This document shows, in pieces, positions 483-64,000 of a stretch of 64,000 bases of DNA (its first letter is position 1; every line of letters starts with the position of its first letter). Location: NCBI RefSeq assembly GCF_044324875.1, contig NZ_CP172185.1, one strand, 5' to 3'. The notes below the pieces were generated by a model, which searched no databases, was not told where the DNA came from, and saw only the letters and a program-made list of their open reading frames with translations. Made by a program: the position numbers and the translations under genes. The stretch is from Escherichia coli (GTDB lineage Bacteria; Pseudomonadota; Gammaproteobacteria; Enterobacterales; Enterobacteriaceae).

Positions 483-532
483 GCCATCTCCTGGAAATAT
501 TTTCTGACGATCTCCAGTATGGTCGATTAACT

Positions 533-694: not shown

Positions 695-967
695 TTAATC
701 TTCATCAAAACCAGAATTAAAGAGGGCGATAACGGCGGCCAGTGCTTCCTCTTCCTGTGGACCGGTCGCTTCAACTTCAATCTGCCGTCCTTTGGCAGAA
801 TCCAGCATCAGCAGTGCAATAACGCTGTTGGCTTCAGCCTCGGTGCCTTCGTCATTACGTAACAGCACTTCAGCGTCGAAACCCTGCATTAATTCAAACA
901 GCTTCATTGCAGGCCGGGCATGCATGCCCAGCTTGTTTGTGATTTCAACAGTTTGCTTGACGGTCAT
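695..967 (-). CDS. ptsO: Phosphocarrier protein NPr of the nitrogen PTS
   Basis: 90-aa [28 protein letters not shown]..., HPr-like; position after rapZ. Confidence 0.93.
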
Positions 968-1818: not shown

Positions 1819-1863
1819 GTACTGTTTCTCCTCACAACGTCTAAAAGAGACATTACCGAATAA

Positions 1864-2355
1864 CTACGCTTCATCCGGAGTACCTTCGGTATCCGTAATG
1901 ATTTGATACAGCTCTTCATCGCTCTGGGCAGCGCGTAAACGGCGGCAGATGGTTTTGTCCGCCAGACGTTTCGCCACCAGCGACAGAGTATGCAGGTGCG
2001 TTTTAGTTTGGTCTGCCGGCACCAGCAGGGCAAAAAGTAAATCCACCGGTTGGTTGTCGATGGCATCGAAAGCTATAGGCGTTTCGAGCTGAACGAAAAC
2101 GCCAACGGCGCGCAGAGTATCTTCTTCCAGTTTGCCATGCGGAATGGCAATACCATTGCCGATACCGGTACTGCCCATTTTTTCCCGCGTCAGGATAGCT
2201 TCAAAAACCACCTGAGGCGGCAGGCTAAGTTGTTTCGCCGCCAGCTCGCTGATGATTTCCAGGGCGCGTTTTTTGCTCTGACAGTGGACGCGGCTTCGCG
2301 TACATTCCCTGTTAAGAACACTGCTAAGCTGTAGAGTTGTATCATTATTTGTCAT
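1864..2355 (-). CDS. ptsN: Nitrogen PTS EIIA-Ntr
   Basis: ORF 1864..2379; start placed at internal Met (MTNNDTTLQLSSVL...) to give the 163-aa product I recall. Confidence 0.88.
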   Translation of the reverse strand: MTNNDTTLQLSSVLNRECTRSRVHCQSKKRALEIISELAAKQLSLPPQVVFEAILTREKMGSTGIGNGIAIPHGKLEEDTLRAVGVFVQLETPIAFDAIDNQPVDLLFALLVPADQTKTHLHTLSLVAKRLADKTICRRLRAAQSDEELYQIITDTEGTPDEA

Positions 2356-2472
2356 AATTTCACCTAAGAACCTGCCCACTCAAACAGTGGAACAGGCTCG
2401 GAGCATTAACCGTACAAATGGCCCGTTGTGCCGCACAACAGGCCGCCATGCACATGCTAATTGCCCGGACAA

Positions 2473-2760
2473 TTAGTGTTGTTTCAGTTTATCTTTATGT
2501 TTGGTCAACTGGCGTGCCAGCTTATCAATTAAGCCATCAATGGCAGCGTACATGTCCTGACCTTCCGCGCTGGCATGAATTTCACCACCGTTTACATGCA
2601 GTGTTGCATCTGAGGTGTGGGTGACTTTCTCCACTTTCAGAACAACATAGACCTGGTTGATTCGGTCAAAATATTGCTCAAGTTTGGCAAATTTGGCTGT
2701 AACAAATTCGCGCAGTGCCTCGGTGATCTCGACGTTATTTCCGGTAATGTTGAGCTGCAT
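2473..2760 (-). CDS. hpf: Ribosome hibernation promoting factor
   Basis: ORF 2473..2844; start placed at Met of MQLNITGNNVEITEALREF... (95 aa). Confidence 0.88.
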   Translation of the reverse strand: MQLNITGNNVEITEALREFVTAKFAKLEQYFDRINQVYVVLKVEKVTHTSDATLHVNGGEIHASAEGQDMYAAIDGLIDKLARQLTKHKDKLKQH

Positions 2761-2782
2761 AGTGTCTTCCTTATCGGTTGGG

Positions 2783-4216
2783 TCAAACGAGCTGTTTACG
2801 CTGGTTTGACGGCGGAATGGATAAAGACTCTCGGTACTTCGCAACAGTGCGGCGTGCCACCATGATACCTTGTTCCGACAGCAAAGAGGTTAACTTGCTG
2901 TCGCTCAACGGTTTCGCTGGGTTTTCCGCCGCGATTAATTTCTTCACCAGCGCACGAATCGCCGTGGAGGAAGCTTCGCCGCCGCCCTCGGTATTGACGT
3001 GACTGGAAAAGAAATACTTCAGTTCAAAAATGCCTCGTGGACTATGCAGGTATTTTTGCGTGGTCACGCGAGATATCGTCGATTCATGCATTTCGACAGC
3101 CTGGGCGATATCGGCCAGTACCATCGGTTTCATATATTCTTCGCCTTGCTCAAAGAAGGCTTGCTGCTGTTCAACGATACAGCGACTCACGCGCAGTAGC
3201 GTATCGTTACGGCTTTCCAGACTCTTGATCAACCATTTGGCATCCTGCAGATTGCTGCGGATAAACTGGCTGTCACCATCGTTGCGCGCGTTATTGCACA
3301 TCGAGGCGTAGTGCTGGTTGATTTGCAGACGCGGAATGCTGTCACTGTTGAGTTCTACCGTCCAGTGACCGTTATGCTTACGCACCAGCACATCTGGAAT
3401 GACATACTCAGGTTCGCCCGTCTGGATCGACTGCCCGGGGCGCGGATCGAGCGACTGGATCAGATTGACGGCTTCTTTCAGCACATCTTCTTTCAGACGC
3501 GTGACGCGCATTAAAGTGCGGAAGTCGTGATTGGCTAACAGATCGAGATGATCGCTAATGATCAGTCTGGCCTCTTCCAGCCATGGCGTGGTTTTATCGA
3601 ATTGGGAGAGTTGGATCAGCAGACAGTCACGCAGATCTTTTGCTGCCACACCGACCGGATCAAACCGTTGGATCCGCTTAAGGACGGCTTCAACTTCGTC
3701 GATGTCAATCTCTTCATCGCCCATACTTTCGAGAATATCTTCCAGTGGGACAGTCAGATAACCGGTGTCATCAACGGCATCGACGATAGAGGTAGCAATA
3801 GCGCGGTCAGTGTCAGAAAACGGTGTCAACTCGACCTGCCACATCAGGTAATCCTGCAAGGTCTGCGTCGTTTCGCCCTGATAGACCGGCAGCTCGTCGT
3901 CAATGTAGTCACCGCTGGTGCCGGATGGTGTACCAGCGGTGTAAATGGTGTCCCAACTGGCATCGAGCGGCAGCTCTTCCGGCATCTCTTTTTGTTCGAA
4001 CGCGTCGGCGGTGTCCAGCGTTTCACTGTCTTGCGTTTCGCGGGTGTCGATTTCTTCATGAGTGTCGATTTGCTCAAGCAGCGGATTACTCTCCAGCGCC
4101 TGCTGTAGCTCCTGCTGAAGTTCCAGCGTCGACAACTGCAACAGACGAATTGCCTGTTGGAGCTGTGGCGTCATCGCCAGTTGTTGGCTAAGCCTGAGTT
4201 GCAAACCTTGCTTCAT
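2783..4216 (-). CDS. rpoN: RNA polymerase sigma-54 factor
   Basis: 477-aa [31 protein letters not shown]..., C-terminal RpoN box [10 protein letters not shown]. Confidence 0.95.
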
Positions 4217-4263
4217 GTTCAGAATCGTACTCTCCTGCTAAAACGTCGCAAACTTCTACCCTA

Positions 4264-4989
4264 TCAGAGTCTGAAGTCTTCCCCAAGGTATACACGCTTA
4301 ACGTGTTCGTCTTGTAAGATTTCCGTAGGCGTGCCGTGGGCGATCAAATGCCCCTGACTGACGATATAAGCGCGTTCACAAACCGCCAGTGTTTCACGCA
4401 CGTTGTGGTCAGTGATCAGTACGCCCAGGCCGCTGTCGCGCAGGTGCTCAATGATGCGTTTAATGTCGATAACCGAGATCGGGTCAACCCCGGCAAACGG
4501 TTCGTCGAGCAGAATAAATTTCGGATTCGCAGCCAGTGCGCGGGCAATTTCTACACGGCGACGTTCACCCCCGGAGAGTGACTGCCCCATGCTGTCACGC
4601 AAGTGTTCAATGTGAAACTCTTCCATCAGCTCGTTCGCGCGGTCTTCACGTTGTTCAGCAGACAAGTCGTCACGAATTTGCAGTACCGCCATCAGGTTAT
4701 CGTAAACGCTGAGGCGACGGAAAATGGAGGCTTCCTGTGGCAGATAGCCGATACCGCGGCGCGCGCGTGCATGCAGTGGCAGCAGACTGATATCGTCATC
4801 ATCAATAATGATGTTGCCCGCATCGCGCGGCACAATGCCTACAACCATGTAGAAAGTGGTGGTCTTACCGGCACCGTTTGGCCCCAGCAGACCGACAATT
4901 TCCCCGGAGTTGACGGTCAGGCTGACGTCTTCTACCACGCGACGGCCTTTATAGGCTTTTGCAAGGTTCTTTGCAGTTAATGTTGCCAT
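4264..4989 (-). CDS. lptB: LPS export ABC transporter ATP-binding protein
   Basis: 241-aa ORF with Walker [10 protein letters not shown] and ABC signature LSGGERRR. Confidence 0.95.
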
Positions 4990-4995
4990 AACGAA

Positions 4996-5553
4996 TTAAT
5001 TACCCTTCTTCTGTGCCGGGGTCTGGCCTTTGTTGTTTTTGTCCTGCAGCTGCGACGGCACCAGAACGGTGGTTACGCGCTTACCTTTGTCGCTGAAAGC
5101 CTGCATTTTCTGCTCTTTCACCAGGTAAGTGATCTTATCGCCCTTAATGTTGCTATCGACCTGCTGCAGATAAGCATTACCCGTCAGAACGACAAAATCT
5201 TTTGCCAGTTCGTAGTGCATCTGGGAAGCGTGACCTTCAACGGGTTTACCATTGTCCTGCATCTGGTAGAACGTTGCCGGTTTACCGTAGCCGTCAATCA
5301 CTTCTTTACCTTGTTCGCCGCCCGGACGGGTAACGACCACTTTGTCGGCATTAATTTTGATGGTACCCTGGGTGACGATGACATTACCGGTAAAGGTAAC
5401 CACGTTGCCTTGCATATCAAGAGATTGCTGGTCCGATTCAATGTGGATCGGCTGATCAGTGTCTCCGGTTACGGCAAATGCCGGAATGCTGGCGGCCAGA
5501 AGTGAGCTGGCAAGCACAAGATTAAGGCTGAGTTTGTTTGTTTTGAATTTCAT
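4996..5553 (-). CDS. lptA: LPS transport periplasmic protein LptA
   Basis: ORF 4996..5574; start at internal Met MKFKTNKLSLNLVLASSLLAASIPAFA (signal peptide), 185 aa. Confidence 0.88.
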   Translation of the reverse strand: MKFKTNKLSLNLVLASSLLAASIPAFAVTGDTDQPIHIESDQQSLDMQGNVVTFTGNVIVTQGTIKINADKVVVTRPGGEQGKEVIDGYGKPATFYQMQDNGKPVEGHASQMHYELAKDFVVLTGNAYLQQVDSNIKGDKITYLVKEQKMQAFSDKGKRVTTVLVPSQLQDKNNKGQTPAQKKGN

Positions 5554-6097
5554 AGGATGTTCTAACCTTTTCAATCAGCTCGGCGTTCTTGCTGCGTAAG
5601 TTGCCGCGCATTTTCAGACCGCTGGAGTTAAATGTTGTTCCGTATAACGTGACGAGGTCTTCAGAGGTAACATCCTGCGTCACCAGATTGATCTGCGCGT
5701 TATCCGTCGTGATTCTGCGAAGTTGAGAGTCCGGCACAAGTGCGTTGACTTCAACGTGTCCATATAAATAGAGCATCCGGTCATTGGTCAGCTTGGCTTT
5801 ATCTGCTTTTACGGACCATGTCGGGATTTTATCCTTATCAAACGTGGTAAGTACCGGCTGCGTAAACCACGAAACGGCCTGATCGGAATAATATTCAACG
5901 TGTTGAGCAATCAATCGATAGCTTAGTGCCCCTTCTGGGTTATAGACGAGCGTGTCCGTATGCTCGCTTTTATAGGTGGGATCATTGTTGTTGACGACCA
6001 CCTGGGCGGTATCGTCTTTTTCGGCCATATTAATGCCGATCATCACCAGAACCGCCAGTGATAGCACAATGATAACCCAACGTCTGGCTTTACTCAT
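5522..6097 (-). CDS. lptC: LPS export inner-membrane anchored protein LptC
   Basis: 191-aa ORF MSKARRWVIIVLSLAVLVMIGINMA...; overlaps lptA start. Confidence 0.92.
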   Translation of the reverse strand: MSKARRWVIIVLSLAVLVMIGINMAEKDDTAQVVVNNNDPTYKSEHTDTLVYNPEGALSYRLIAQHVEYYSDQAVSWFTQPVLTTFDKDKIPTWSVKADKAKLTNDRMLYLYGHVEVNALVPDSQLRRITTDNAQINLVTQDVTSEDLVTLYGTTFNSSGLKMRGNLRSKNAELIEKVRTSYEIQNKQTQP

Positions 6098-6660
6098 ATC
6101 GATTGCCCTTTGGCTTCATCCAGTTTGCCCTGCGCCAGGAGTAATAAGTCGCAAACTTCTCGCACTGCGCCACGACCGCCAGCAATGCGCGTCACGTAAT
6201 CGGCGCGCGGGATCAACAGTGGATGCGCATCGGCCACGGCGACGCTTAAACCCACTTTTTCCATTACCGGCCAGTCGATGAGATCATCGCCGACATAAGC
6301 CACATTTTCCGGGGCAATCGCCAGTTTTTCCAGCAGATCGCTAAAGGCGATCAGTTTGTTTGACTGCCCCTGATACAAGTGAGTGATCCCCAATGTGGCA
6401 CAACGATCTTCTACCAGTTTAGCCTTTCGCCCGGTAATGATAGCGACTTCAATATCAGAGGTGAGCGCACAACGAATGCCATAACCGTCACGAACATTGA
6501 ACGCTTTCAGCTCTTCGCCATTATTGCCCATATAAATCAGGCCATCTGACAGTACGCCATCGACATCGAGGATCAGCAGACGAATGTTCTCTGCTTTTGC
6601 TATAACGTCGGCGCTGACAGGGCCGTAACAGGTCGCAAGCGACGCACCTGCTTTGCTCAT
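6094..6660 (-). CDS. kdsC: KDO-8-phosphate phosphatase
   Basis: 188-aa HAD-family ORF with LLILDVDGVLSDG motif. Confidence 0.93.
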   Translation of the reverse strand: MSKAGASLATCYGPVSADVIAKAENIRLLILDVDGVLSDGLIYMGNNGEELKAFNVRDGYGIRCALTSDIEVAIITGRKAKLVEDRCATLGITHLYQGQSNKLIAFSDLLEKLAIAPENVAYVGDDLIDWPVMEKVGLSVAVADAHPLLIPRADYVTRIAGGRGAVREVCDLLLLAQGKLDEAKGQSI

Positions 6661-6680
6661 TGTTGTTTATCCTTGAATCT

Positions 6681-7667
6681 TTACACTACGCCTGCACGCA
6701 GTAAATCATGCATATGTAACACACCGAGTAAATGGTCGCCATCGGCAACCATCACGGAGGTGATATGGCGGGACTGCATTAAGTTCAGTGCCTCAACGGC
6801 CAGAATGCCAGGGCGCACGCGTATTCCCCCCGGCGTCATAACATCGGCAATACTTAACTGACGAACATCCACGCCCATATCGAAGACACGGCGTAAATCA
6901 CCGTCGGTAAAGATGCCTTCAATCATCATATTGTCATCGCAAATGACAGTCATACCAAGATTTTTGCGGGTAACTTCCAGCAATGCGTCACGCAGACTGG
7001 CCGTTTTTTTAACATGCGGGATCTCATCGCCCGTATGCATAATATCGTTTACGCGTAGCAGAAGTTTACGACCCAGTGCGCCGCCTGGGTGTGAGAGCGC
7101 AAAATCTTCAGCAGTAAAGCCGCGTGCTTTTAACAGAGCGACAGCGAGGGCATCGCCCATAACCAGCGTGGCGGTGGTGCTGCTGGTCGGTGCCAGCCCT
7201 AACGGACAGGCTTCTTTCGCTACTTTAACACACAGATGAACATCTGCGGCGCGCGCCATGCTGCTCTCCGGGCGACCGGTGATGCAGATTAACGGTACGT
7301 GAAGACGCTTAAGCACTGGAATTAAGGCCGTGATTTCGCTGGATTCACCTGAGTTAGAGATAGCAATCACCACATCCTGTGGGGTGACCATGCCTAAATC
7401 ACCATGCGCGGCTTCACCAGGATGGACGAAAAATGAAGGTGTACCGGTGCTGGCAAACGTTGCCGCCATTTTGCGCCCAATATGCCCCGATTTCCCCATC
7501 CCCATGACGACAACTTTCCCTTTACACCAGAACATCTTTTCACAGGCAAGCGTGAAATTCTGATTGATGTATTGATCAAGCTCCGCCAGGCATTCACGTT
7601 CAATCGCCAGGACTTCTTTACCTGCTTGCTGAAAGTCAAAACCCGGTTGTAACTCTACGTGCGACAT
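6681..7667 (-). CDS. kdsD: D-arabinose 5-phosphate isomerase (SIS plus tandem CBS domains)
   Basis: ORF 6681..7688; start at internal Met MSHVELQPGFDF... giving 328 aa. Confidence 0.9.
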   Translation of the reverse strand: MSHVELQPGFDFQQAGKEVLAIERECLAELDQYINQNFTLACEKMFWCKGKVVVMGMGKSGHIGRKMAATFASTGTPSFFVHPGEAAHGDLGMVTPQDVVIAISNSGESSEITALIPVLKRLHVPLICITGRPESSMARAADVHLCVKVAKEACPLGLAPTSSTTATLVMGDALAVALLKARGFTAEDFALSHPGGALGRKLLLRVNDIMHTGDEIPHVKKTASLRDALLEVTRKNLGMTVICDDNMMIEGIFTDGDLRRVFDMGVDVRQLSIADVMTPGGIRVRPGILAVEALNLMQSRHITSVMVADGDHLLGVLHMHDLLRAGVV

Positions 7668-7680
7668 AATGCGTTTCCAG

Positions 7681-8658
7681 TTATTCAACGAGTATTGGCG
7701 ATAACCAGTACAACATCGCCAGCCATACGATAAATCCGCCAGTTAATAATACCCCTACACCACGGCCCGGTTGCGGGGAGCGCCGCCAGCATAGCAACGC
7801 AAAAATAATGCTCACCAGCAACATCACGCTGTAGTCACGACTGTACGCCAGTGGATCAATCTCTCCTGGCGTTATCAGCGCGGGTAAACCCAACACGATG
7901 ACAATATTAAAAATGTTTGCGCCAATGATATTTCCGACAGCAATGTCGTTTTCACCTTTGCGAACCCCCGCTATTGCGGTTGCCAGTTCCGGCAGGCTGG
8001 TTCCGATAGCAATTGCCGTCAGACCCATCGTCAACTCGCTGATGGCAAAGTAATTCGCCAGCACCGTGGCGTTATCAACCACCATCCGCGTGGCCACTGG
8101 CATGATGATAAGCGCAATGCCGAGCCATAAAAACGCGACGGGCAATCCACCGTCACGCGGCAACTCTGCAAGCTGCTCTCTGGTCAGGCTGTCAGTCCCC
8201 TGACGTTCAGCCTGACGTGCAAGTTTAACAATGAACAGCAGCCATAGCACAGCCAGAAAGAGGAGAAAGATACCATCGCTGCGACTAAGTTGTCCGTCAT
8301 AGAGTACGGAACCGGCCACCACGCTGACCAACAACATTAAGGGTAATTCACGGCGTAGAACATCAGAATGGACGGTAAAAGGACGAACCAGCGCAGCCAG
8401 ACCGAGGATCAGCAATATATTGATAATGTTTGAGCCGAGGGCTGTACCAACGGCTAAATCGCGTTGTTCGTGCAAAGACGCGGCAAGCGAGACGATGATT
8501 TCTGGTAACGATGTACCAATACTGACCACCGTCATGCCGATGATCAGCGGCGGGATGCCAAAGGTTCGGCAAAGAATAGACGCGGCAAAAACCAGGCGGT
8601 CGGCACTGTAAACGACCAAAAGTAAACCAACAATTAACAGTGCCGTAGCTAAAAGCAT
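7681..8658 (-). CDS. yrbG: Na+/Ca2+ exchanger family inner-membrane protein
   Basis: 325-aa polytopic membrane ORF with duplicated GTSLPE motifs. Confidence 0.9.
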   Translation of the reverse strand: MLLATALLIVGLLLVVYSADRLVFAASILCRTFGIPPLIIGMTVVSIGTSLPEIIVSLAASLHEQRDLAVGTALGSNIINILLILGLAALVRPFTVHSDVLRRELPLMLLVSVVAGSVLYDGQLSRSDGIFLLFLAVLWLLFIVKLARQAERQGTDSLTREQLAELPRDGGLPVAFLWLGIALIIMPVATRMVVDNATVLANYFAISELTMGLTAIAIGTSLPELATAIAGVRKGENDIAVGNIIGANIFNIVIVLGLPALITPGEIDPLAYSRDYSVMLLVSIIFALLCWRRSPQPGRGVGVLLTGGFIVWLAMLYWLSPILVE

Positions 8659-8867
8659 CTAACGTCCTTTCTTCAGGTATACTCGCCGGTCCGCTGAAGA
8701 TTTTCAGAAAGCCGTAACGGATTCTTAATTTTGACTTTATGCGGCTAAAAAGTAAAACAAATGCCAGCTTTCGCTAACCACGGCGGGTAATATTCTGTAA
8801 ATATGTTGGGTTCAAGGTTAAATTGAGCGCCATGCTTAGAAAATCAACGCAAGACGAAGGGTGAATT

Positions 8868-10467
<1,600 letters not shown>

Positions 10468-10471
10468 GTTC

Positions 10472-11023
10472 ATGCAAACGAAAAAAAATGAAATTTGGGT
10501 GGGTATCTTTTTATTAGCAGCACTACTGGCGGCGCTGTTTGTTTGCCTGAAGGCGGCGAACGTGACGTCCATACGTACTGAACCGACCTACACGCTTTAT
10601 GCGACGTTCGATAACATTGGCGGCCTGAAAGCGCGCTCTCCGGTCAGCATTGGTGGTGTTGTTGTGGGCCGGGTGGCGGATATTACGCTGGACCCGAAAA
10701 CATATCTGCCGCGCGTAACGCTGGAAATTGAACAACGTTATAACCACATTCCTGATACCAGTTCGCTGAGCATTCGTACTTCCGGCCTGCTGGGGGAACA
10801 ATATCTGGCATTAAACGTCGGTTTTGAAGACCCGGAACTGGGGACTGCTATCCTGAAGGATGGCGATACAATTCAGGACACCAAGTCTGCGATGGTGCTG
10901 GAAGATCTTATTGGTCAGTTCCTTTACGGTAGTAAAGGCGATGACAATAAGAATAGTGGCGATGCGCCAGCTGCTGCGCCAGGTAATAATGAAACCACTG
11001 AACCTGTGGGTACAACGAAATAA
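10472..11023 (+). CDS. mlaD: MCE-domain phospholipid-binding protein MlaD
   Basis: ORF 10457..11023; start at internal Met MQTKKNEIWVGIFLLAALL... (183 aa). Confidence 0.9.
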   Translation: MQTKKNEIWVGIFLLAALLAALFVCLKAANVTSIRTEPTYTLYATFDNIGGLKARSPVSIGGVVVGRVADITLDPKTYLPRVTLEIEQRYNHIPDTSSLSIRTSGLLGEQYLALNVGFEDPELGTAILKDGDTIQDTKSAMVLEDLIGQFLYGSKGDDNKNSGDAPAAAPGNNETTEPVGTTK

Positions 11024-51295: not shown

Positions 51296-52045
<750 letters not shown>

Positions 52046-52117
52046 TTATTCCCAAGAATTGATAGTGAGCGTAATATTCACGCGCTCAATTATCATAACT
52101 TATTCCTGGGGAATGCT

Positions 52118-53158
52118 ATGACTGGTCAGTCTTCATCTCAGGCGGCAACGCCCATTCAGTGGTGGAAACCCGCGCTTTTCTTTCTCGTTGTCATTGCTGG
52201 TCTCTGGTATGTGAAATGGCAACCTTACTACGGCAAAGCGTTTACTGCTGCCGAAACCCACAGTATCGGTAAATCTATCCTTGCGCAGGCGGATGCTAAT
52301 CCGTGGCAGGCGGCGTTGGATTACGCGATGATCTATTTCCTCGCGGTATGGAAAGCGGCGGTGCTGGGGGTGATCCTCGGTTCGTTGATTCAGGTGCTGA
52401 TCCCGCGTGACTGGTTGCTGCGTACGCTTGGGCAATCGCGCTTTCGCGGCACGCTGCTGGGAACGCTGTTTTCGCTGCCGGGTATGATGTGTACCTGCTG
52501 TGCGGCTCCGGTCGCGGCGGGAATGCGTCGCCAACAGGTATCGATGGGCGGGGCGCTGGCATTCTGGATGGGGAATCCGTTGTTAAACCCGGCGACGCTG
52601 GTGTTTATGGGGTTTGTCCTCGGCTGGGGCTTTGCCGCGATTCGTCTGGTGGCGGGGTTGGTGATGGTATTGCTGATTGCGACGCTGGTGCAAAAATGGG
52701 TGCGTGAAACACCGCAAACGCAGGCACCGGTCGAAATTGACATACCGGAAGCGCAGGGCGGGTTTTTTAGCCGCTGGGGCAGGGCACTATGGACGCTTTT
52801 CTGGAGTACGATCCCGGTTTACATCCTTGCGGTACTGGTGTTGGGTGCCGCTCGCGTCTGGTTATTCCCCCATGCCGATGGTGCTGTCGATAACAGCCTG
52901 ATGTGGGTGATTGCGATGGCGGTAGCGGGATGCTTGTTTGTCATTCCCACGGCGGCAGAAATTCCAATTGTACAAACGATGATGCTGGCAGGCATGGGAA
53001 CCGCTCCGGCGCTGGCATTGTTGATGACGCTCCCGGCGGTGAGTTTGCCGTCACTGATTATGCTGCGCAAAGCGTTCCCGGCGAAAGCCTTATGGCTGAC
53101 AGGGGCGATGGTGGCAGTGTCTGGTGTGATTGTCGGCGGGTTGGCGCTGTTGGCCTAA
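52118..53158 (+). CDS. yraQ: Putative permease, inner membrane
   Basis: 346-aa polytopic ORF. Confidence 0.9.
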   Translation: MTGQSSSQAATPIQWWKPALFFLVVIAGLWYVKWQPYYGKAFTAAETHSIGKSILAQADANPWQAALDYAMIYFLAVWKAAVLGVILGSLIQVLIPRDWLLRTLGQSRFRGTLLGTLFSLPGMMCTCCAAPVAAGMRRQQVSMGGALAFWMGNPLLNPATLVFMGFVLGWGFAAIRLVAGLVMVLLIATLVQKWVRETPQTQAPVEIDIPEAQGGFFSRWGRALWTLFWSTIPVYILAVLVLGAARVWLFPHADGAVDNSLMWVIAMAVAGCLFVIPTAAEIPIVQTMMLAGMGTAPALALLMTLPAVSLPSLIMLRKAFPAKALWLTGAMVAVSGVIVGGLALLA

Positions 53159-53193
53159 GATGTTGGATGCTCCTGAATACAGCACTGGACGGT

Positions 53194-53217
53194 CCCCTCT
53201 CCCCTTTGGGGAGAGGG
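53194..53217. terminator. Strong GC hairpin between convergent yraQ and dolP
   Basis: cccctctcccc-ttt-ggggagaggg, a 10-bp perfect stem with 3-nt loop. Confidence 0.6.
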
Positions 53218-53279
53218 TTAGGGTGAGGGGAACAGGTCGGCTAAGGTGTGAATATTTACTTCAACGACCGATCAATGGC

Positions 53280-53855
53280 TTATTTAATAAACGTAAACGC
53301 CGTGGTTACCCGCTTCACGCCGCTTACCCGGCTGGCAATATCTGCCGCCGCTTTCGCTTCACGTTCAGTCACTAGTCCCATCAGGAACACTTCACCGTTT
53401 TCGGTGGTCACTTTCACGTTGGACGATTTCACCAGGTCGCTGGTTAAGAGCTGCGAACGCACTTTGGTGGTGATCCACGTATCGTTAGACGCTTCGCCCA
53501 GACCAATCGGCTGGCCCTGACGAATCTCGTTATACACTTCGTTGGCACCGTCTACGCCCATAGCAATCTGTTTGGCGCGAGCCGAAAGTTCAGCGTTTGG
53601 TGACTGCCCAACCAGCAGCACTTTGCCCTGATACGCCGTGACATTAATACGGGTTTCTTTCTTAATCTGTTCGTCTTTCGACAATGCGCTGTTTACGCGC
53701 ACTTCCAGGGTACCATCGTCCACCTGGGTGCCGACACTGCGTGGGTCAGTTGCGGCTTTGGTACCTACAGCAGCGGTACCCACTACGGCAGCGGCAACAC
53801 AACCTTGCAACAGCAGCGCGGAAAGAAGGACTGCGATTGGCGATAATGCCTTCAT
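53280..53855 (-). CDS. dolP: Dual-BON-domain outer-membrane lipoprotein DolP
   Basis: 191-aa ORF with lipobox LLLQGC. Confidence 0.94.
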   Translation of the reverse strand: MKALSPIAVLLSALLLQGCVAAAVVGTAAVGTKAATDPRSVGTQVDDGTLEVRVNSALSKDEQIKKETRINVTAYQGKVLLVGQSPNAELSARAKQIAMGVDGANEVYNEIRQGQPIGLGEASNDTWITTKVRSQLLTSDLVKSSNVKVTTENGEVFLMGLVTEREAKAAADIASRVSGVKRVTTAFTFIK

Positions 53856-53864
53856 GTATTCTCC

Positions 53865-54455
53865 TTAAACATCCTGGTGAGGGAAAAGCGTGTTATCGAT
53901 CAGATCGCACAGGCAATTTACCGTCAGCATATGCATTTCCTGAATGCGAGCACTACGATGCGAAGGAATGCGGATCTCCACATCCTGTGGCCCTAACAAA
54001 CCTGCAAGTTCACCGCCGTCATAGCCGGTTAATGCCACAATGGTCATATCACGCGTAACGGCAGCTTCTACCGCTTTTACAATATCGCGGCTGTTGCCAC
54101 GGGTGGAAATGGCTAACAATACATCTCCCGCATGACCCAGCGCCCGCACCTGTTTTGCATACACTTCATCATGTAAGCGATCGTTGGCAATCGCCGTTAA
54201 GACAACATTATCAGTATTTAGTGCAATGGCAGGTAAGCTGGGCCGCTCCGTTTCGAAACGGTTGATCATGCTGGCAGCAAAATGCTGTGCATTGGCAGCG
54301 GAAGTTCCATTACCACAACAGAGGATTTTGTTGCCATTGAGCAGAGACTGAACCAGCGTCATAGCTGCACGCGAGATGGCATCCGGAAGCGCCTCTGCCG
54401 CCGCAATTTGAGTTTGAATGCTTTCAGTGAAGCAAGCTTTAATTCTTTCTTGCAC
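53865..54455 (-). CDS. diaA: DnaA initiator-associating protein DiaA (SIS domain)
   Basis: 196-aa [64 protein letters not shown]... Confidence 0.94.
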
Positions 54456-54474
54456 GCTAATCCTTAAACCTTAA

Positions 54475-54870
54475 TTATGAGTGGTCATTAAAGGCATCCT
54501 TAATCCACTCAACCTCATTCCCGGTGAAGGCTACCACATCGAACCGGCAATCCACAGTATCAAAACTCCCATTATGACGCGCGAGCCACAAGCGGGCAGT
54601 CTGTAATAATTTGTGTTGTTTGCTGCGGGTCACACTGGCTGCCGCGCCGCCATAAAGCGCAGAGCGGCGGTAACGCACCTCGACAAAAACGGTGGTCCGG
54701 CCTTCACGCATTATCAGATCGATCTCGCCGCCACGCTCGTTCACGTTAGCGGCGATAAACCGCAGTCCTTTGCCTTCCAGCCAGCGACGCGCTTGTGCTT
54801 CCCACGCATCGCCGGTCTGTTTGGTGGTTAACTGGCGGGGACTACCTGACCTTGTTGGTACTGTAGCCAT
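54475..54870 (-). CDS. yraN: UPF0102 protein YraN
   Basis: 131-aa ORF; start overlaps the lpoA 3' end. Confidence 0.9.
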
Positions 54871-56864
54871 GATAACTTCCTGTTAATCACGCAATCCGGG
54901 TTAGCCGTCAGACTTCCGGTATTACCGTTGATTTCAAAACCCTGAACCTGGCGCATTTGTGAGAAATGATTTGCCAACGACCAGGCATCGACGCCCATCG
55001 CATACATGCGAGCCAGCGAATAATCGTTGTTCACCGCGCTGAGCGCCTGCTGCATTAACGGCAGATTACCGCCTGCCAGCATCGGGATTTCGCTGTACTG
55101 CAAGCCTTCCATCTCCAGACGGAAATCCGGGCCTGCGGTGCCTTGTGCGCTGCGGGAACTGGCGTACAGCGTTGCACCGCTCTGGCTACCGTTACGCATG
55201 GCGATCATCGGTTTGATAAAAGCGATTTCACCCGGCGTTGCCACAATGTAGACCGCATCGACACGACCGCCATTATTGGTGAACTGGTCATCGGTTGGCG
55301 TGGTTTGCAGCGTTGGATTGTTGGTCGTCATGCCGGAGTCGGTTGTCGCTCTGGGAGTAATCGGGCTACCCGTTAAAGCAATACCAGAACCGCCGTTAAC
55401 ACCCGCGCGTAATTCGCTGGTGGAACCAAATTTTTGTTGCAGAACGGTGCCGCCACCCAGTTTCTGCCACTCTTGCGCAAACGCATTGGCTACGCGATCG
55501 CCCAATGAACTGCGCGGGATCAGCACCAGCGGCGCTTGTTTACCCTGGTCACGAATATGACGCGCTGCATCGCGCGCTTCGTCTTCCGGCGAAAGCGCGA
55601 AGTAACAAATATTGACGCGGTTTTCGATATTCTCCGGCTGGTTCAGTGCCAGCACGTTCAGCGGAGTGTTGCTCTTCAGCAACTCTTCAACGTTATTTTT
55701 CAGCAACGGACCGACCACAATACTCGCGCCATCCTGCTGAACCTGGCTTAAGATCTGGCTAAGTGGTTGTGATGAGGTATCGTAGATTTTCAGCTCTGCG
55801 GATGGATTTGCGGGTGCGCTTACCGCTGCGGTGCTTGTCGCCGGGGCGCTTACAGGCACCGGCTGGGCCGCAGGCTGTTCACCGGTCAGATCGCTAACCG
55901 AGGCTTGTGCCGGGCTGGCAACGCCATCCACGGTTTGCGGCTGAGGTTGTTCTGCTACGTCTGCGGCAGGTGCGGCAGCTACCTGGGCCGCCACTGGCTG
56001 AGTGCCGATATTTTTCGCCGCTTCAAAGCCTTGCTGAATAGTGCGACCAAATACCGCTGCCTGGCCATTCAGTGGCAACAGCAGGGCGATTTTGTTGGTC
56101 GATGCGGGTTTAAACGCTTTTACGTTGACCAACTGCGTTGGCAGCATTTTCGCGCCCGGGTTGTTCGGATAACGTTTCTGCCAGTCGGCGATCCCGGCTT
56201 TCATCATGTCGGGATCGTTACGGTTATCAAACCAGATGCGCTGCAGATCCAGCCAGCCTTGCAGAATATTTTCGTCGGCATTGATCACCAGCGTATTCGC
56301 CTGTTCCTGAGTCATGGAGGAGAGCGCCTGCCAGGTGGCGTCAATATTCTGCTGCTTTTCTTTCGCACCGAGCAGCGGTTCCTGAGCAATTAACGCGCGC
56401 AGTAAATCAATGGAAGGACGCCCCTGGCTGGCATCGATTTTTGCCTGCCAGTAACGCGCTTGCTGGTTTTGTTCTAAATCTGCAGGTGTGATTTTCGCCA
56501 GCAAGTTTTGCGCGCCAGCAAAATCTTTCTGCGCCAGTTTAATCTCTGCCGCCAGCAGTGTTTTCTCGCGACGCTGAGAATCGTTCAGTTCTTGCGGTAG
56601 TTGGTTAAACAACTCCACCGCCTGTCCGGTTTTACCTTCTTTCACCAGTGCACGAATGGCGAGTAATTGCCAGTTGATCCTGGTATCATCAGAACTTTGC
56701 TGCATCTGTTGCAGGTAAAAGGCAGAATCAGCCTGCGCCGTGCCCTGCATATAAGCAGTGGACTGATCGGGAGTATGGGTGCCACAACCGGCGAAAATCA
56801 GGGCTGCCAGAACAACAGGCAGACAACGCGCGGCTTTCAAACGAGAAAATGTTGAGGGTACCAT
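54828..56864 (-). CDS. lpoA: Outer-membrane lipoprotein activator of PBP1A, LpoA
   Basis: ORF 54828..56894; start at internal Met [27 protein letters not shown] (lipobox), 678 aa; Ala/Pro/Gln-rich linker mid-protein. Confidence 0.9.
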
Positions 56865-56928
56865 AATGTATCCAGTGATATTTTTTTTACGCAATGCTCA
56901 ATATTAAATCGGCAATACGGACGACACA

Positions 56929-57792
56929 ATGAAACAACACCAATCGGCGGATAATTCTCAGGGCCAGCTTTACATTGTACCGACGCCAATCGGCAATCTG
57001 GCGGATATCACCCAGCGTGCGTTGGAGGTATTACAGGCCGTTGATCTGATTGCCGCCGAGGATACGCGTCACACCGGTTTATTGCTGCAACATTTTGGGA
57101 TTAATGCTCGGTTGTTTGCGCTGCACGACCATAACGAACAACAAAAAGCCGAAACGCTGCTGGCGAAGCTGCAAGAGGGGCAAAACATTGCGCTGGTTTC
57201 CGATGCCGGAACGCCGCTAATTAACGATCCTGGCTACCATCTGGTGCGTACCTGCCGTGAAGCGGGGATTCGCGTGGTGCCGCTACCCGGGCCGTGTGCT
57301 GCTATCACTGCGTTAAGCGCCGCGGGTTTACCATCCGATCGTTTTTGTTATGAAGGCTTTTTACCTGCCAAATCAAAAGGCCGCCGTGATGCGCTAAAAG
57401 CCATTGAAGCGGAGCCGCGCACGCTGATTTTTTATGAATCTACCCACCGTCTGTTAGATAGCCTGGAAGATATCGTTGCGGTATTAGGCGAATCCCGCTA
57501 CGTGGTTCTGGCGCGTGAGCTGACCAAAACCTGGGAAACCATTCACGGCGCGCCCGTTGGCGAGCTGCTGGCGTGGGTCAAAGAAGATGAAAACCGTCGC
57601 AAAGGCGAAATGGTACTGATTGTCGAAGGCCATAAAGCACAGGAAGAAGACTTACCCGCCGATGCCCTGCGCACGCTGGCGCTGTTGCAGGCAGAACTGC
57701 CACTGAAAAAAGCGGCGGCGCTGGCAGCAGAAATTCACGGCGTGAAGAAAAATGCGCTGTATAAGTATGCACTGGAGCAGCAGGGAGAGTGA
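56929..57792 (+). CDS. rsmI: 16S rRNA C1402 2'-O-methyltransferase
   Basis: 287-aa [38 protein letters not shown]...; divergent from lpoA. Confidence 0.93.
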
Positions 57793-57841
57793 TTACAGGC
57801 GTCGCAGCAGGAATAGCGTTGCAACGCCTGTAGCAGGCGAG

Positions 57842-58609
57842 TTAACGACGACACATCTCATCAATCATGCATGTGAAATAGTTATGCAGCCATAAAAATG
57901 AAGCCGGGATAGCGGTAGAGACTTTAGCCGTGAGAAAACGTTCTGTCGCATCCTGCTTTCCTTCGCCAGTCACCAGTAACAAAACTTCGCGGGCATTGAG
58001 AATATCCTTCAGGCCTAAGGTGATCCCACGAGTCACGGGACGGCCCGCAGTTTTTAACATCTCATGTTGCTGTGTTCTGGCATCAAGTTGACTGATATGG
58101 CAGGCCGGTTGCAGGTTTTCTCCCGGTTCGTTCAGCCCAAGATGACCGTTTTTCCCCAATCCGAGAACGCATAAATCCAGACCGCCTTTGCGCGCAATCA
58201 GGTTCGTTACCCGTTCGCACTCTGTCTCATTTATCTCTTCGGAGCGAAAGCTGATGAGTTGGTCTTCACGCAGCCCCAGCGGCTGCACGATATGCTGTTG
58301 TAGGAAAGTTTCGCAGGTGCCAGGCATCGTTAATGGCAGATCCACCCATTCGTCGAGCTTCACGAAGGTGAGCTGGCTGACATCAACCTGCTGCTGGTGG
58401 ATTTTTTCTACCAGATAATGATACGTCAGTAATGGCGTGGCTCCGGTCGCCAGGCAAATCACGGCATCCGGTTTGCTACGGATCACGGCCAATAAATATT
58501 CGCTGGCACGTTCACTTAACGCCATATAGTTTTCAACTTGCTGAAGGGTTTGCACAGGATGAAATTCCTTAAGTAAAGAGGCACCACCAGACGCAGTGCC
58601 TCGTTCCAT
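57842..58609 (-). CDS. agaI: Galactosamine-6-phosphate deaminase/isomerase (NagB-like)
   Basis: 255-aa ORF MERGTASGGASLLKEFHPVQTLQQVENYMALSERASEYLL...; about 50 bp from rsmI. Confidence 0.88.
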   Translation of the reverse strand: MERGTASGGASLLKEFHPVQTLQQVENYMALSERASEYLLAVIRSKPDAVICLATGATPLLTYHYLVEKIHQQQVDVSQLTFVKLDEWVDLPLTMPGTCETFLQQHIVQPLGLREDQLISFRSEEINETECERVTNLIARKGGLDLCVLGLGKNGHLGLNEPGENLQPACHISQLDARTQQHEMLKTAGRPVTRGITLGLKDILNAREVLLLVTGEGKQDATERFLTAKVSTAIPASFLWLHNYFTCMIDEMCRR

Positions 58610-59401
58610 TTACAAAATTCCGAATGCGGAACAAACAATAGAGAGCACAAAAGTCACGCCGATTAACAGCACCGGATGCGCTTTTTTCACCCGCAGGAAG
58701 TAATACATCAGCAGGGTGTAGGCCATCGGTAAAATATTCGGGAAGACTTTATCGAAGAAATCCTGCTGCAGCGCGACGCTGTGGGTACTGTCGATGTCAA
58801 ACGATGTCACCACGTTAATATGAACATACGAAGCGATCAGCCCGCCGATTACCGTGATCCCGAGGATGGTTGCCGAACGGGCAATCATCTGCGAGTTCTC
58901 TCGCACTTTATCGATCGCCTTCACGCCGACTGAATAACCGACGTGGGTCCAGCCGACGCGCAGGAAAAAGATAAGCAGGTAAACGGCGAAAAATAGAATC
59001 GGCCCCAGCAAGTTTCCCTGGCTGGCAAATGATGAGCAAATTCCCGCCATAATCGGCAATAAGGTAAACCAGAAAATCGCATCGCCAATCCCGGCGATTG
59101 GGCCAAACAGTGCTACTTTGAGGCCTTTAATGGTGTCGCGGTTTTCTCCTTTTTCTTCCATCGAAATTAATAACCCCATCAGGAATCCGACCAGATTCGG
59201 GTGGGTATTAATAAATTCGAGGTTATCTTTCATCGCCGCGCTTAGGCCCGGTTTGTCGTCCTTATAAATCTTTTTCAGGATCGGCAACATCGCCCAGGTA
59301 AAACCGCCCGCCTGCATCCTTTCGTAATTAAAGCTCGCTTGCAGCAGTGACGAACGAAAGCCCAGACGGGTGATATCTTTTTTACTGATTTCAGATCCCA
59401 T
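58610..59401 (-). CDS. agaD: PTS N-acetylgalactosamine/galactosamine EIID component
   Basis: ORF 58610..59548; start at internal Met MGSEISKKDITRLGFRSSLLQASFNYERMQAGGF... (263 aa). Confidence 0.88.
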   Translation of the reverse strand: MGSEISKKDITRLGFRSSLLQASFNYERMQAGGFTWAMLPILKKIYKDDKPGLSAAMKDNLEFINTHPNLVGFLMGLLISMEEKGENRDTIKGLKVALFGPIAGIGDAIFWFTLLPIMAGICSSFASQGNLLGPILFFAVYLLIFFLRVGWTHVGYSVGVKAIDKVRENSQMIARSATILGITVIGGLIASYVHINVVTSFDIDSTHSVALQQDFFDKVFPNILPMAYTLLMYYFLRVKKAHPVLLIGVTFVLSIVCSAFGIL

Positions 59402-60194
59402 TGCTGTAGTCCTCTTCTTCATTTTTACTGGCAACGGGCTGCGGTTGCGCTTGCTGCCGGGATTTCGCATTGAAAAACTCATACACCGCAAAGCCTGCGC
59501 CCAGTACGGCAACCGGCAACAGGTTGCTGACCTGGATGTAGCAAACAAACAGGAAACCGGCGATCAGGTAAGGGATATATTGCGCTTTGAACATCACGCG
59601 CAGCAGCAAGCCAAAACCAACGGCAGGCAGAATACCGCCAGCCACTTCAAAGCCGTGGGTCAGCCAGGCGGGCATCGCTTTCACCAGCGCCTGCATCGCC
59701 CCCTGTGCCAGGTAAGTACAGAGGAAAGCAATCACCGCATACGCTGAAGCGACGATGAGCATCGTTGTCCAGTTAAGTCGGGAAAACGCTGCCGTATCCG
59801 CCTCTTTTGCGCATTTATCGGCTTTGGTCATAAATAATGAGAAAGCGGAATAGAAGAACAGAATGACGTACTGCATTAACAAACTAAACGGCAGGCCAAG
59901 ACCAATTGCCGTTTTGGCATCAACGCCCGTAGACCATGCAATGACAGTGGTCATCAGACCCGCCATAATCGGGTTGGGCGGCTGAACACCACCTGCAGGG
60001 GTTAATCCGGCGAAAGCCAACTCTGTCAGACCACCGGTAATTAAGCCAGTCTGAATATCACCGAGAATAGCGCCAGTTAGGGTACAAACGATTATCGGGC
60101 GGAATAAAAATAAGGCTTCCAGCCAAAAATCAATCCCCAGAACGAAAACTAACGCCGCCAGGGATAATCCCTGAAGTAGGGTTATTTCATGCAT
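59391..60194 (-). CDS. agaC: PTS galactosamine EIIC component
   Basis: 267-aa polytopic ORF MHEITLLQGLSLAALVFVLGIDFWLEALFLFRPIIVCTLTGA... Confidence 0.92.
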   Translation of the reverse strand: MHEITLLQGLSLAALVFVLGIDFWLEALFLFRPIIVCTLTGAILGDIQTGLITGGLTELAFAGLTPAGGVQPPNPIMAGLMTTVIAWSTGVDAKTAIGLGLPFSLLMQYVILFFYSAFSLFMTKADKCAKEADTAAFSRLNWTTMLIVASAYAVIAFLCTYLAQGAMQALVKAMPAWLTHGFEVAGGILPAVGFGLLLRVMFKAQYIPYLIAGFLFVCYIQVSNLLPVAVLGAGFAVYEFFNAKSRQQAQPQPVASKNEEEDYSNGI

Positions 60195-60232
60195 TTTTAT
60201 TACCTCAAACCAATATTAAGGCGATTTTAGAT

Positions 60233-60709
60233 TTAGTCAGGGATTTGTTCTTTTTGATCGCCAGGGACGTCCTGAATGAAAACATTCACGCCACGTTGTT
60301 TAATAAAACGTAAGTCCGTGAGATCCTGGTCATCGACATAAACTTTACTGCTGATTTGCTTTTTCCCTTCCGAGAAATGCATATTGCCGACGTTGACATC
60401 TTTCAGGTCAATACCACCTTCTACCAATTTACGTACCGTTTGTGGCGTACGGCAAATCAGGAAGATCTTTTGATGCGGTGCAGCTTTGCCGATGACGTTA
60501 ATGGTTTTTTCGATAGTAAAGAAACGAATGCCAAAGCCGTAGGTTTCTGCGGTAATACTCATTAATTTCTGTTGAATATCATCGTTAGCGACAACATCAT
60601 CCACAACTACCAGCAGATTTGCACCGATGGTAGATGTCCAGGTCACGCCAACCTGACCGTGAACCAGACGGTTATCAATACGGGTTAAGAGAATATTTGG
60701 ACTGCTCAT
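60233..60709 (-). CDS. agaB: PTS galactosamine EIIB component
   Basis: 158-aa ORF MSSPNILLTRIDNRLVHGQVGVTWTSTIGANLLVVVDD... Confidence 0.93.
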   Translation of the reverse strand: MSSPNILLTRIDNRLVHGQVGVTWTSTIGANLLVVVDDVVANDDIQQKLMSITAETYGFGIRFFTIEKTINVIGKAAPHQKIFLICRTPQTVRKLVEGGIDLKDVNVGNMHFSEGKKQISSKVYVDDQDLTDLRFIKQRGVNVFIQDVPGDQKEQIPD

Positions 60710-60875
60710 TGTGTAATCCTCACCATAAAGTTGAATAATATAATTTTTTTAAATATATTATTGTTGCGATATTTTACTGATGTATTTATTAAGGTTTAGT
60801 TATCTCCTTTACCATTAAGGCACTCCCCGATATTAATCGGGAAGTACATTGGGATAAATCATAAAAAACTAATGA

Positions 60876-61748
<873 letters not shown>

Positions 61749-62903
61749 TTATGCCTGCCACGGATGAATGATTACGCCTTGCACCACGCGGTTAACGGTG
61801 CCACTGGCTGATGGGGTATCCGGCGTATTGCCCATGTGCAGCGACTGCATCAGTGCAAACGTCTGGGCGTACATCAGGAAGCAAAATGCCTGCTCAACGT
61901 CGATAAAGTGACGTGACGGTGGCAGGATGATATGTGGACCGGCAGCGACGATGTCGCTGCTTTCCGCGGCGATGGCGATTACACGCATTGCCTGGTTGTC
62001 ACGGCGAAGTTCAGCCAGCAGATCAAGATCATACTGACGGGTGTAAGGGTGGCTGGAGACAAATACCACCACCAGCGTTTCGTTATCGACCAGCGATTTC
62101 GGGCCATGACGGAATCCGGTCGGGGAATCATAAAAGGCCGCCAGTTTACCCGCCGTCAGTTCCAGTACTTTCAGCGCCGACTCGCGTGCTGCGCCCTGTA
62201 AGCCACCGCTGCCGAGATAAACGATCCGTTTCCACGGTGCGTAACCAAACACACCTTCGCTGAAATCGCCCAGTGAGGTCAGGATCGCCTGGCAACGATC
62301 CGCCACGTCGCGGAAGCTCTGGCTGTTGATCGTCTCAGGTGCGAAAACCGCGAGGCAGCTGGCCATCATGGTGGTAATGCTGCTGGTCATCGCAAAGCCG
62401 CGATCGTGCGTTTCTGCGGGCATCAGCAGGGCAAACGCGTTGTCGCTGTTGATCGCGTTTTGGTAAAGAGCGCCCGCTTCGTTGCAGGTGATCGGCAGGT
62501 GATAGCACTCGGGTACAAATTGATTTGCCAGTTCCACGGCGGCGACGCTTTCCGGGCTGTTGCCGGATCGACCGAAGGAGATCAACAGCAGTGGATGAGC
62601 TGGATTCAGGTAGTCCATCGGATTGGTGACCAGATCGGTGGTCGGTACGGCGCTGAAGTTTTTACCGGTATGGCTGGCGAGCCACGGCGCGATGATGTCA
62701 CCGATAAATGCCGAGGTTCCGGCTCCGGTCAGGATTACCCGCAGATTCTCTTTGCGCAGTAACGGTTCAAGGAAGTTATTGAGCGCGGAACGTAGCGCGT
62801 CGATGTTGGTGAGTGAACGGATCCATGCGCGAGGCTGATGGCGGATCTCTTCTTCAGTCCATGTACCGGTTGCGGCAGCAGCAGGGGTGTAATTTTCTGG
62901 CAT
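61749..62903 (-). CDS. agaS: SIS-domain galactosamine-6-phosphate deaminase/isomerase AgaS
   Basis: 384-aa ORF MPENYTPAAAATGTWTEEEIRHQPRAWIRSLTNIDALRSALNNFLEP... Confidence 0.93.
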   Translation of the reverse strand: MPENYTPAAAATGTWTEEEIRHQPRAWIRSLTNIDALRSALNNFLEPLLRKENLRVILTGAGTSAFIGDIIAPWLASHTGKNFSAVPTTDLVTNPMDYLNPAHPLLLISFGRSGNSPESVAAVELANQFVPECYHLPITCNEAGALYQNAINSDNAFALLMPAETHDRGFAMTSSITTMMASCLAVFAPETINSQSFRDVADRCQAILTSLGDFSEGVFGYAPWKRIVYLGSGGLQGAARESALKVLELTAGKLAAFYDSPTGFRHGPKSLVDNETLVVVFVSSHPYTRQYDLDLLAELRRDNQAMRVIAIAAESSDIVAAGPHIILPPSRHFIDVEQAFCFLMYAQTFALMQSLHMGNTPDTPSASGTVNRVVQGVIIHPWQA

Positions 62904-63123
62904 AACTCAATCCTTAGTCTGATGAACTTGACGTCGGGCGTTGTCGCTTTCGCTTACCTTTCGTTTCATTTCATTTGGTGATGTCTTTCGTTGATTAAAA
63001 TCTATAGAAAAGAAACTGAAAGTTCAATGGAGAAAAAAGAAATAAAACGAAATTTGTGATCGTTGAAAGAAAAGACAAGGGAAGATTAAAGAATTGCATG
63101 ATGACGTTGCTATGTGCACCGAT

Positions 63124-63182
63124 TGCCGGATGCGGCGTACCGTAGGTCGCATAAGACGCGTCAGCGTCGCATCCGACACCGC
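63124..63182. repeat. REP-like imperfect palindrome in the agaS-agaA intergenic region
   Basis: gccggatgcggcgtaccgtaggtcgcataagacgcgtcagcgtcgcatccgac, preceded by an A-rich stretch (63000-63110). Confidence 0.55.
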
Positions 63183-63253
63183 TGCACAGATCAAAAAGAA
63201 AGAAAAAGAAAGGCCTTACGGGGGAAGTGAAGGCCCAATAAAGGAGCAAACCA

Positions 63254-64000
63254 TCAAAACGAAGCTAATTGACCCTGAATCCAGATTTGTTGCACATGCA
63301 GCCCGCTATCCAGCGCAACGACGCTGGCGCGTTTGCCCGGTTTAAGCGATCCCAGAACATCATCAACACCCAGCATACGCGCCGGATGCAGCGACGCCAT
63401 ATGGATGGCTTCCGCAGGCGTTACGTCCGTCAACTCGACCATATTGCGCACTGCCGCATCAACAGACAGCGTACTGCCCGCCAGTCCACCGGACGCGGTA
63501 CGGACAACGCCACCGTGCATCTGCACTTCTTCGCCACATAACGTATAGCGACCATCCGGCATCCCGGCTGCCTGCATCGCGTCGGTGATCAGCACGATTC
63601 TCTCTTTTGCACAGCAACAACACAGCGACATCGCCGCCGGATGCACATGATGACCATCGGCTATCAGTTCCAGCCAGGCGCGCTTGTCCGTTAATCCCGC
63701 GCCAACCATTCCCGGTTCGCGGTGATGTAAACCTGTCATCCCGTTATAGCAATGCACCAGGCCGTCGGCACCAGCGTCAAACGCGGCACGGGTTTGTTGC
63801 CAGGTCGCCGCGCTATGCCCCAGCATCACCCGTACGTTTTGCTGTTTAAGATGGCGGATGGCCTGCAATGCCCCTTCTTTTTCCGGTGCCAGCGCTACCA
63901 CGCGCAAGGTGTGCTGAGAAACGGCAATCAATTGATCCAGCTCGGCAATTTCCAGCTCGCGAAACAGCTCCGGCGGATGCGCGCCTTTATTCTGCGGCGT
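63254..64000 (-). CDS. agaA: N-acetylgalactosamine-6-phosphate deacetylase (NagA-like), partial: 3' part of the gene, 5' end beyond the window
   Basis: ORF track gives 225 aa from an internal Met at 63931; the frame appears to stay open to the window edge in the short stretch checked. Amidohydrolase-like blocks VMLGHSAATWQQTRAAFDAGADGLVHCYNGM resemble NagA. Confidence 0.85.
   Translation of the reverse strand, partial: TPQNKGAHPPELFRELEIAELDQLIAVSQHTLRVVALAPEKEGALQAIRHLKQQNVRVMLGHSAATWQQTRAAFDAGADGLVHCYNGMTGLHHREPGMVGAGLTDKRAWLELIADGHHVHPAAMSLCCCCAKERIVLITDAMQAAGMPDGRYTLCGEEVQMHGGVVRTASGGLAGSTLSVDAAVRNMVELTDVTPAEAIHMASLHPARMLGVDDVLGSLKPGKRASVVALDSGLHVQQIWIQGQLASF

Follow-up and report, generated by a model that had tools for sequence, protein, structure and literature searches.

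Probable full-length agaA in a complete aga/gam regulon of an Escherichia coli strain without the K-12 deletion

The aga/gam regulon, through which Escherichia coli takes up and degrades N-acetylgalactosamine (GalNAc) and galactosamine (GalN), carries in strain K-12 a published 2.3-kb deletion that makes it Aga− Gam− (PMC3668189). In the DNA analysed here, a stretch of 64,000 nt from contig NZ_CP172185.1 (assembly GCF_044324875.1) that is called the window throughout, the frame of an agaA-like gene runs into the last base. The question is whether this strain carries a remnant of agaA, as K-12 does, or the whole gene within a complete cluster. The gene is very probably a normal, full-length agaA in a complete 13-gene aga/gam regulon, without the K-12-specific 2.3-kb deletion. 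The open frame, the reading through the K-12 junction and the intact genes from agaS to agaI are all found in the window itself.

The agaA gene at the window edge

The feature at the edge is as follows.

63254-64000, minus strand: agaA 3′ part, codons 130-377 plus stop, GalNAc-6-phosphate deacetylase (predicted); cut by the window edge, not truncated

Translation of this frame gave 248 sense codons and a stop codon (63254-63256), uninterrupted up to base 64000, and the remaining two minus-strand frames of the interval are full of stops. The list of open reading frames gives 225 aa, counted from the first in-frame TTG at 63931, and the initial annotation, which had claimed at least 225 aa of a NagA-like deacetylase open to the edge, was therefore slightly conservative. 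No frameshift, which that annotation had considered as a sign against its reading, was seen: the frame is open in the window part, and the agaA of the identical locus L005 described below runs to the full 377 aa. Three plus-strand ORFs antisense to agaA (63269-63541, 63333-63548 and 63607-63849) were taken as chance ORFs within a strongly supported gene.

In the NCBIfam nagA equivalog model TIGR00221, positions 137-379 of 380 are covered by the translated fragment (E = 1.8e-59). It corresponds to AgaA residues 130-377, the C-terminal ~65% of the 377-aa protein, and agrees in all 248 residues with the C-terminus of the L005 protein. Alone it scores 201.6 bits, below the cut-off of 225.65 only because 129 residues fall outside the window; the full 377-aa AgaA of L005 passes the same cut-off with 291.7 bits.

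Judged by its neighbourhood, the window-edge gene is agaA of the aga/gam regulon and not nagA, because six aga/kba genes follow it downstream on the same strand, with canonical lengths and scores above cut-offs. The expected position between agaF and agaS also holds, with agaS 350 nt downstream in the window and agaF overlapping the start of agaA in both L005 and L001, the latter being another complete cluster.

In L001 (9355-10488) and in other RefSeq records, PGAP gives agaA the label 'nagA: N-acetylglucosamine-6-phosphate deacetylase', since TIGR00221, the nagA equivalog, is the only model passed. An AgaA-specific NCBIfam model seems to be absent, whereas AgaE, AgaF, AgaW and AgaR have models of their own.

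The K-12 deletion junction

The blastn comparison of the window with K-12 MG1655 (L002) returned one block, in which window 57885-63812 corresponds to L002 10995-5068 at 98.0% identity. The homology to K-12 ends at window position 63812, which is L002 position 5068. On the K-12 side, bases 1-5077 and 5068-10995 flank a segment of 2295 bp in the undeleted cluster L001, with an overlap of ~10 bases at the junction. According to the feature list, the missing segment holds the 3′ part of agaW, agaE, agaF and the 5′ part of agaA, the same set of losses that the initial annotation had named. This 2295-bp gap matches the published 2.3-kb deletion. What is left in K-12 is annotated as two pseudogenes, agaW′ (b3134) with 402 nt and agaA′ (b3135) with 504 nt; the latter amounts to 167 codons plus a stop, in agreement with the fragment of about 167 aa given in that annotation. 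The homology of K-12 to agaA is 559 nt, somewhat above the annotated 504 nt.

In the window, the sequence beyond this point is still agaA.

63813-64000, minus strand: portion of agaA absent from K-12, 188 nt past the 2.3-kb deletion junction at 63812

The comparison with K-12 agaA′, which the initial annotation had recommended, thus gives a gene that is 188 nt longer than in K-12, as had been supposed, and the window sequence matches undeleted genomes at 99.9-100%. A junction of K-12 type, in which agaW codon ~133 is joined to the agaA 3′ part, was not found in the window, which diverges from K-12 at 63812. A K-12-type 2.3-kb deletion with its agaW′/′agaA fusion at or barely past the window edge, a reading without any support that is conceivable only since the window ends within agaA, is impossible, because the K-12 junction maps inside the window, at 63812, and agaA reads on from there. 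The K-12-specific 2.3-kb deletion is absent from this strain.

Genes downstream of agaA in the window

Six genes of the regulon follow agaA on the minus strand (scores are given against the curated NCBIfam cut-offs).

61749-62903, minus strand: agaS, GalN-6-phosphate deaminase/isomerase, 384 aa, intact; TIGR02815 (agaS_fam), 633 bits against 529
60876-61736, minus strand: kbaY, tagatose-bisphosphate aldolase catalytic subunit, 286 aa, intact; NF009375, 666 bits against 542
60233-60709, minus strand: agaB, PTS galactosamine IIB, 158 aa, intact; NF007288, 282 bits against 180
59391-60194, minus strand: agaC, PTS galactosamine IIC, 267 aa, intact; NF007289, 407 bits against 300
58610-59401, minus strand: agaD, PTS galactosamine IID, 263 aa, intact; NF007359, 456 bits against 400
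57842-58609, minus strand: agaI, 255 aa, intact; NF007291, 471 bits against 271

All six have canonical lengths and lie above the curated equivalog or subfamily cut-offs, and the agaD call of 263 aa is the same in the identical locus L005. No obvious insertion of IS size was seen in the ORF list of the whole window, in which the run of ORFs is uninterrupted. An origin in Shigella or some other IS-rich lineage, considered in view of a best complete-genome identity of only 98.8%, was rejected on this ground. A split agaD was seen in another contig with the same AgaS protein (L009, 13503-14294), which also has a split garD (1002-2573).

Upstream genes in an identical assembly

The extension of the sequence upstream, towards the full agaA and agaE/agaF, was made by proxy through L005, a locus of the public draft assembly GCA_016679215.1 (contig DADDMO010000004.1, 200,885 bp). 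L005 is identical to window 52000-64000 (100.000% identity, 0 mismatches in 12,001 nt), and the next-best loci have at least 72 mismatches. L005 is thus the source or a clonal relative, the identity of L005 and window being established for these last 12 kb. The DacB protein, from a distal part of the window, was looked up by exact match and is present in 54,069 blocks; GCA_016679215.1 was not among the matches listed.

Past the position of the window edge, L005 continues with the full 377-aa agaA, followed by agaF, agaE, agaW, agaV, kbaZ and agaR, and none of its 13 aga/gam genes has an internal stop. The upstream proteins score well above their NCBIfam equivalog cut-offs: AgaF 218 bits against 130, AgaE 618 against 500, AgaW 410 against 300, AgaV 320 against 180, KbaZ 897 against 707 and AgaR 466 against 260. 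From this locus, identical over the 12-kb overlap, we infer for the strain itself the 5′ third of agaA together with agaF, agaE, agaW, agaV, kbaZ and agaR, the six genes being intact by proxy.

The exact look-up of the AgaS protein led to eight contigs, and the same upstream arrangement is found in nearly all of them. In each of the eight, a 377-aa agaA is preceded by agaF (144 aa), and agaW (259 aa), agaV (157 aa), kbaZ (426 aa) and a divergent agaR (269 aa) are present; agaE (292 aa) was called in seven. The contig without this call is L008 (7198-8084), its AgaS protein being the same. Between L005 and L001 there are 0-5 residue differences per protein; the substitutions include AgaR S77P, AgaF I52F and AgaW R134H.

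Frequency of the undeleted cluster in E. coli

Of the 5426 complete E. coli genomes, 4944 (~91%) have the 2295-bp segment that K-12 has lost, and in 4930 its coverage is at least 80%. A 120-nt probe of the K-12 junction was matched end to end in 371 of the 5426 (~7%). Among the matches listed, two are full-length, ER1709 and BM28, the latter with 'laboratory' in its source field, and these examples have the look of laboratory strains. In BL21, in O157:H7 and in clinical isolates, only half of the probe was matched. In E. coli the cluster is thus normally undeleted, and the K-12 state is the exception.

These frequencies also bear on the possibility of some other lesion just outside the window (a deletion, an IS insertion or a frameshift, in the 5′ part of agaA or in agaF, agaE, agaW or agaV) that would leave agaA or the GalNAc transporter non-functional. 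Codons 1-129 of agaA and the six upstream genes do lie beyond the window, which ends at codon 130, and variants of this kind are rare but real, since 14 of the 4944 genomes have only a part of the segment (20% in H57, for example) and one of the contigs with the same AgaS has no agaE call. On the other hand, every gene is intact in L005, with zero mismatches over 12 kb, and at least 80% of the segment is held by ~99.7% of the genomes that have it. We consider such a lesion very improbable, and the intact upstream part remains the preferred reading.

For the last 24 kb of the window (40000-64000), the best match in the 5426 complete RefSeq E. coli genomes is strain GN25, from a night heron, with 98.8% identity; complete genomes represent this lineage poorly. 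Many of them nevertheless reach 99.9% identity in the last 1.1 kb, and recombination may have made a mosaic of the aga end of the window.

Comparison with named strains and predicted phenotype

The closest known counterpart is E. coli C, for which the same 13-gene order and content have been described (Brinkkotter et al. 2000, as summarised in Hu et al. 2013, PMC3668189). The regulon would be arranged as agaR / kbaZ agaV agaW agaE agaF agaA / agaS kbaY agaB agaC agaD agaI. The window itself shows seven of these genes (agaA 3′ part to agaI) and L005 the others, all of them intact. There is no structural difference from E. coli C; the likeness is judged by gene order and content, and allelic differences were counted against L001. 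All 13 genes being intact and of the E. coli C type, the GalNAc PTS and the GalN PTS would both be potentially functional.

In K-12 MG1655, agaS to agaI, like the final 559 nt of agaA, are ~98% identical to the window and the agaA-agaS spacer has the same 350 nt, but 2295 bp are missing at a junction through which the window reads on. O157:H7 strains EDL933 and Sakai have, as here, an agaA without the deletion, and their agaVWEF genes for the GalNAc transporter are intact. Amber codons at agaC codon 8 and agaI codon 72 make O157:H7 Gam−, and isolates from the spinach outbreak are in addition Aga− through AgaF G91S (PMC3668189). At these positions the present locus has CAG at agaC codon 8, Gln at AgaI residue 72 and Gly at AgaF residue 91 (AgaF read in L005).

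The established pathway of such a cluster is given here after the summary in PMC3668189 of Brinkkotter 2000, Ray and Larson 2004 and Leyn 2012. The AgaVWEF PTS brings in GalNAc as GalNAc-6-P, and AgaBCD brings in GalN, with the IIA component AgaF shared by both. GalNAc-6-P is deacetylated by AgaA to GalN-6-P, and this is deaminated and isomerised to tagatose-6-P by AgaS, not by AgaI. Phosphorylation of tagatose-6-P by PfkA then gives tagatose-1,6-bisphosphate, the substrate that KbaY/KbaZ cleave. AgaR acts as the repressor of the regulon promoters until an inducer is present.

The step from a full agaA to GalNAc use, which the initial annotation had taken, is loose, because agaA is dispensable and NagA can substitute for it; its proposal of a complete GalNAc/GalN cluster stands, given the absence of the K-12 deletion and the intact L005 locus. 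In fact, E. coli C and EDL933 remain able to grow on GalNAc via NagA when agaA has been deleted (PMC3668189), so that the full agaA marks the undeleted locus but does not determine the phenotype. The genes that matter for GalNAc use are those of the agaVWEF transporter, agaS and kbaYZ, among which agaW, agaE and agaF are lost in K-12. The best prediction for this strain is Aga+ Gam+, like E. coli C, because all the genes are intact and the known lesions are absent; this prediction rests on transporter genes outside the window.

A strain with a genetically complete cluster could still be GalNAc-negative, GalN-negative or both, through a missense or regulatory change. A single missense, AgaF Gly91Ser, is enough to abolish Aga use in the spinach-outbreak O157:H7 (PMC3668189), and single substitutions separate L005 from L001 in AgaR, AgaF, AgaW and others, as given above. 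However, none of the three known inactivating sites is mutated, all proteins are well above the equivalog cut-offs and the catalytic residues of AgaA are conserved. Such a silent loss of function is improbable, and we retain the Aga+ Gam+ prediction.

The locus is then an ordinary, already described form, as in E. coli C, and nothing points to a new kind of system. The strain should be annotated with a full agaA (PGAP 'nagA'), and it is a predicted user of GalNAc and GalN, both mucin-derived amino sugars. The K-12 reference is the exception at the aga locus; beyond correct annotation the result has little significance and advances no open question.

The AgaA active site and comparison with NagA

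The fold family of AgaA is that of NagA, as represented by the PDB entries 1ymy/2p50 from E. coli and 2vhl from Bacillus subtilis. Full-length AgaA matches E. coli NagA 1ymy with E = 1.6e-48 and B. subtilis NagA 2vhl with E = 1.3e-58, and the motifs LEGP, GHS, H-x-YN, DG-x-H and TDA are aligned between AgaA and NagA. In the window part, H191 (GHSAAT), H212 (VHCYN), H247 (DGHHV) and D269 (ITDAM) share the H/H/H/D columns with 1ymy and 2vhl; E125 (LEGP) and H55/H57 lie outside the window and were read in L005. For the roles of these residues in AgaA and NagA we rely on the structural literature on NagA, from which we take the histidines to be metal ligands and the aspartate to be catalytic.

By these alignments and its place in the aga operon, AgaA of the window is a predicted GalNAc-6-phosphate deacetylase of the amidohydrolase superfamily and a paralogue of NagA. 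GalNAc-6-phosphate deacetylase activity has been published for E. coli AgaA, according to the work cited in PMC3668189. The same article, citing Leyn et al., gives a preference of AgaA for GalNAc-6-P, with a 10-fold lower activity on GlcNAc-6-P, and describes AgaA and NagA as interchangeable in vivo.

One difference concerns a pair of residues near the N-terminus. AgaA and B. subtilis NagA have an H-x-H motif (H55 and H57 in AgaA; IDTHVHGG), whereas E. coli NagA has Q-x-N (IDVQLNG). The AgaA motif is located at L005 8679-8687 (residues 55-57), outside the window. The composition of the metal site may thus differ between the two E. coli paralogues.

It is rather doubtful, taken together, that recombination brought in the aga region and that AgaA, keeping the H-x-H lost from E. 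coli NagA, differs from it in metal stoichiometry. Import would be suggested by the lack, among the 5426 genomes, of any relative that reaches 99% over the last 24 kb, while many reach 99.9% in the last 1.1 kb. If true, both points would be minor refinements of known biology.

The agaA-agaS spacer

Between agaA and agaS, the window has the following features.

62904-63253, no strand assigned: agaA-agaS intergenic region, 350 nt, with three AgaR-operator-like sites and a REP-like inverted repeat
62955-62978, plus strand; 63033-63056, minus strand; 63192-63215, minus strand: AgaR-operator-like sites from a pattern search, with 0, 1 and 3 mismatches, respectively
63124-63137 and 63165-63178: imperfect inverted repeat of REP-like type, TGCCGGATGCGGCG / CGTCGCATCCGACA, with 86% complementarity between arms separated by 27 nt, a short way downstream of the agaA stop

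The pattern searched was WRMMTTTCRTTTYRTTTYNYTTKK, which we take to be the AgaR operator consensus of Ray and Larson 2004. Three of its four matches in the whole window fall in this spacer, and 0.11 would be expected by chance in the window. The three sites are presumably operators of the agaS promoter. The scan of the spacer with sigma-70 promoter and intrinsic-terminator consensus sequences gave no match, so the agaS promoter was not located by consensus. No Rfam family was found in 56000-64000 at gathering thresholds.

The agaI end of the cluster

At the other end of the cluster, K-12 has the yraHIJK chaperone-usher fimbrial operon (~5 kb) between agaI and rsmI. This operon is absent here, where the corresponding region is 57786-57884 and the stop codons of rsmI (56929-57792, plus strand) and agaI (57842-58609, minus strand) are 49 nt apart. 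The yraHIJK operon is found in 3522 of the 5426 complete E. coli genomes, and its absence is a common presence/absence polymorphism.

In the last 43 nt up to the agaI stop (57842-57884), the homology to K-12 is lost, which places the boundary of the yra indel inside the 3′ end of agaI. The C-terminus of AgaI differs in ~10 residues, ending in ...LHNYFTCMIDEMCRR (255 aa) here and in ...LHSNFICLINT (251 aa) in K-12.
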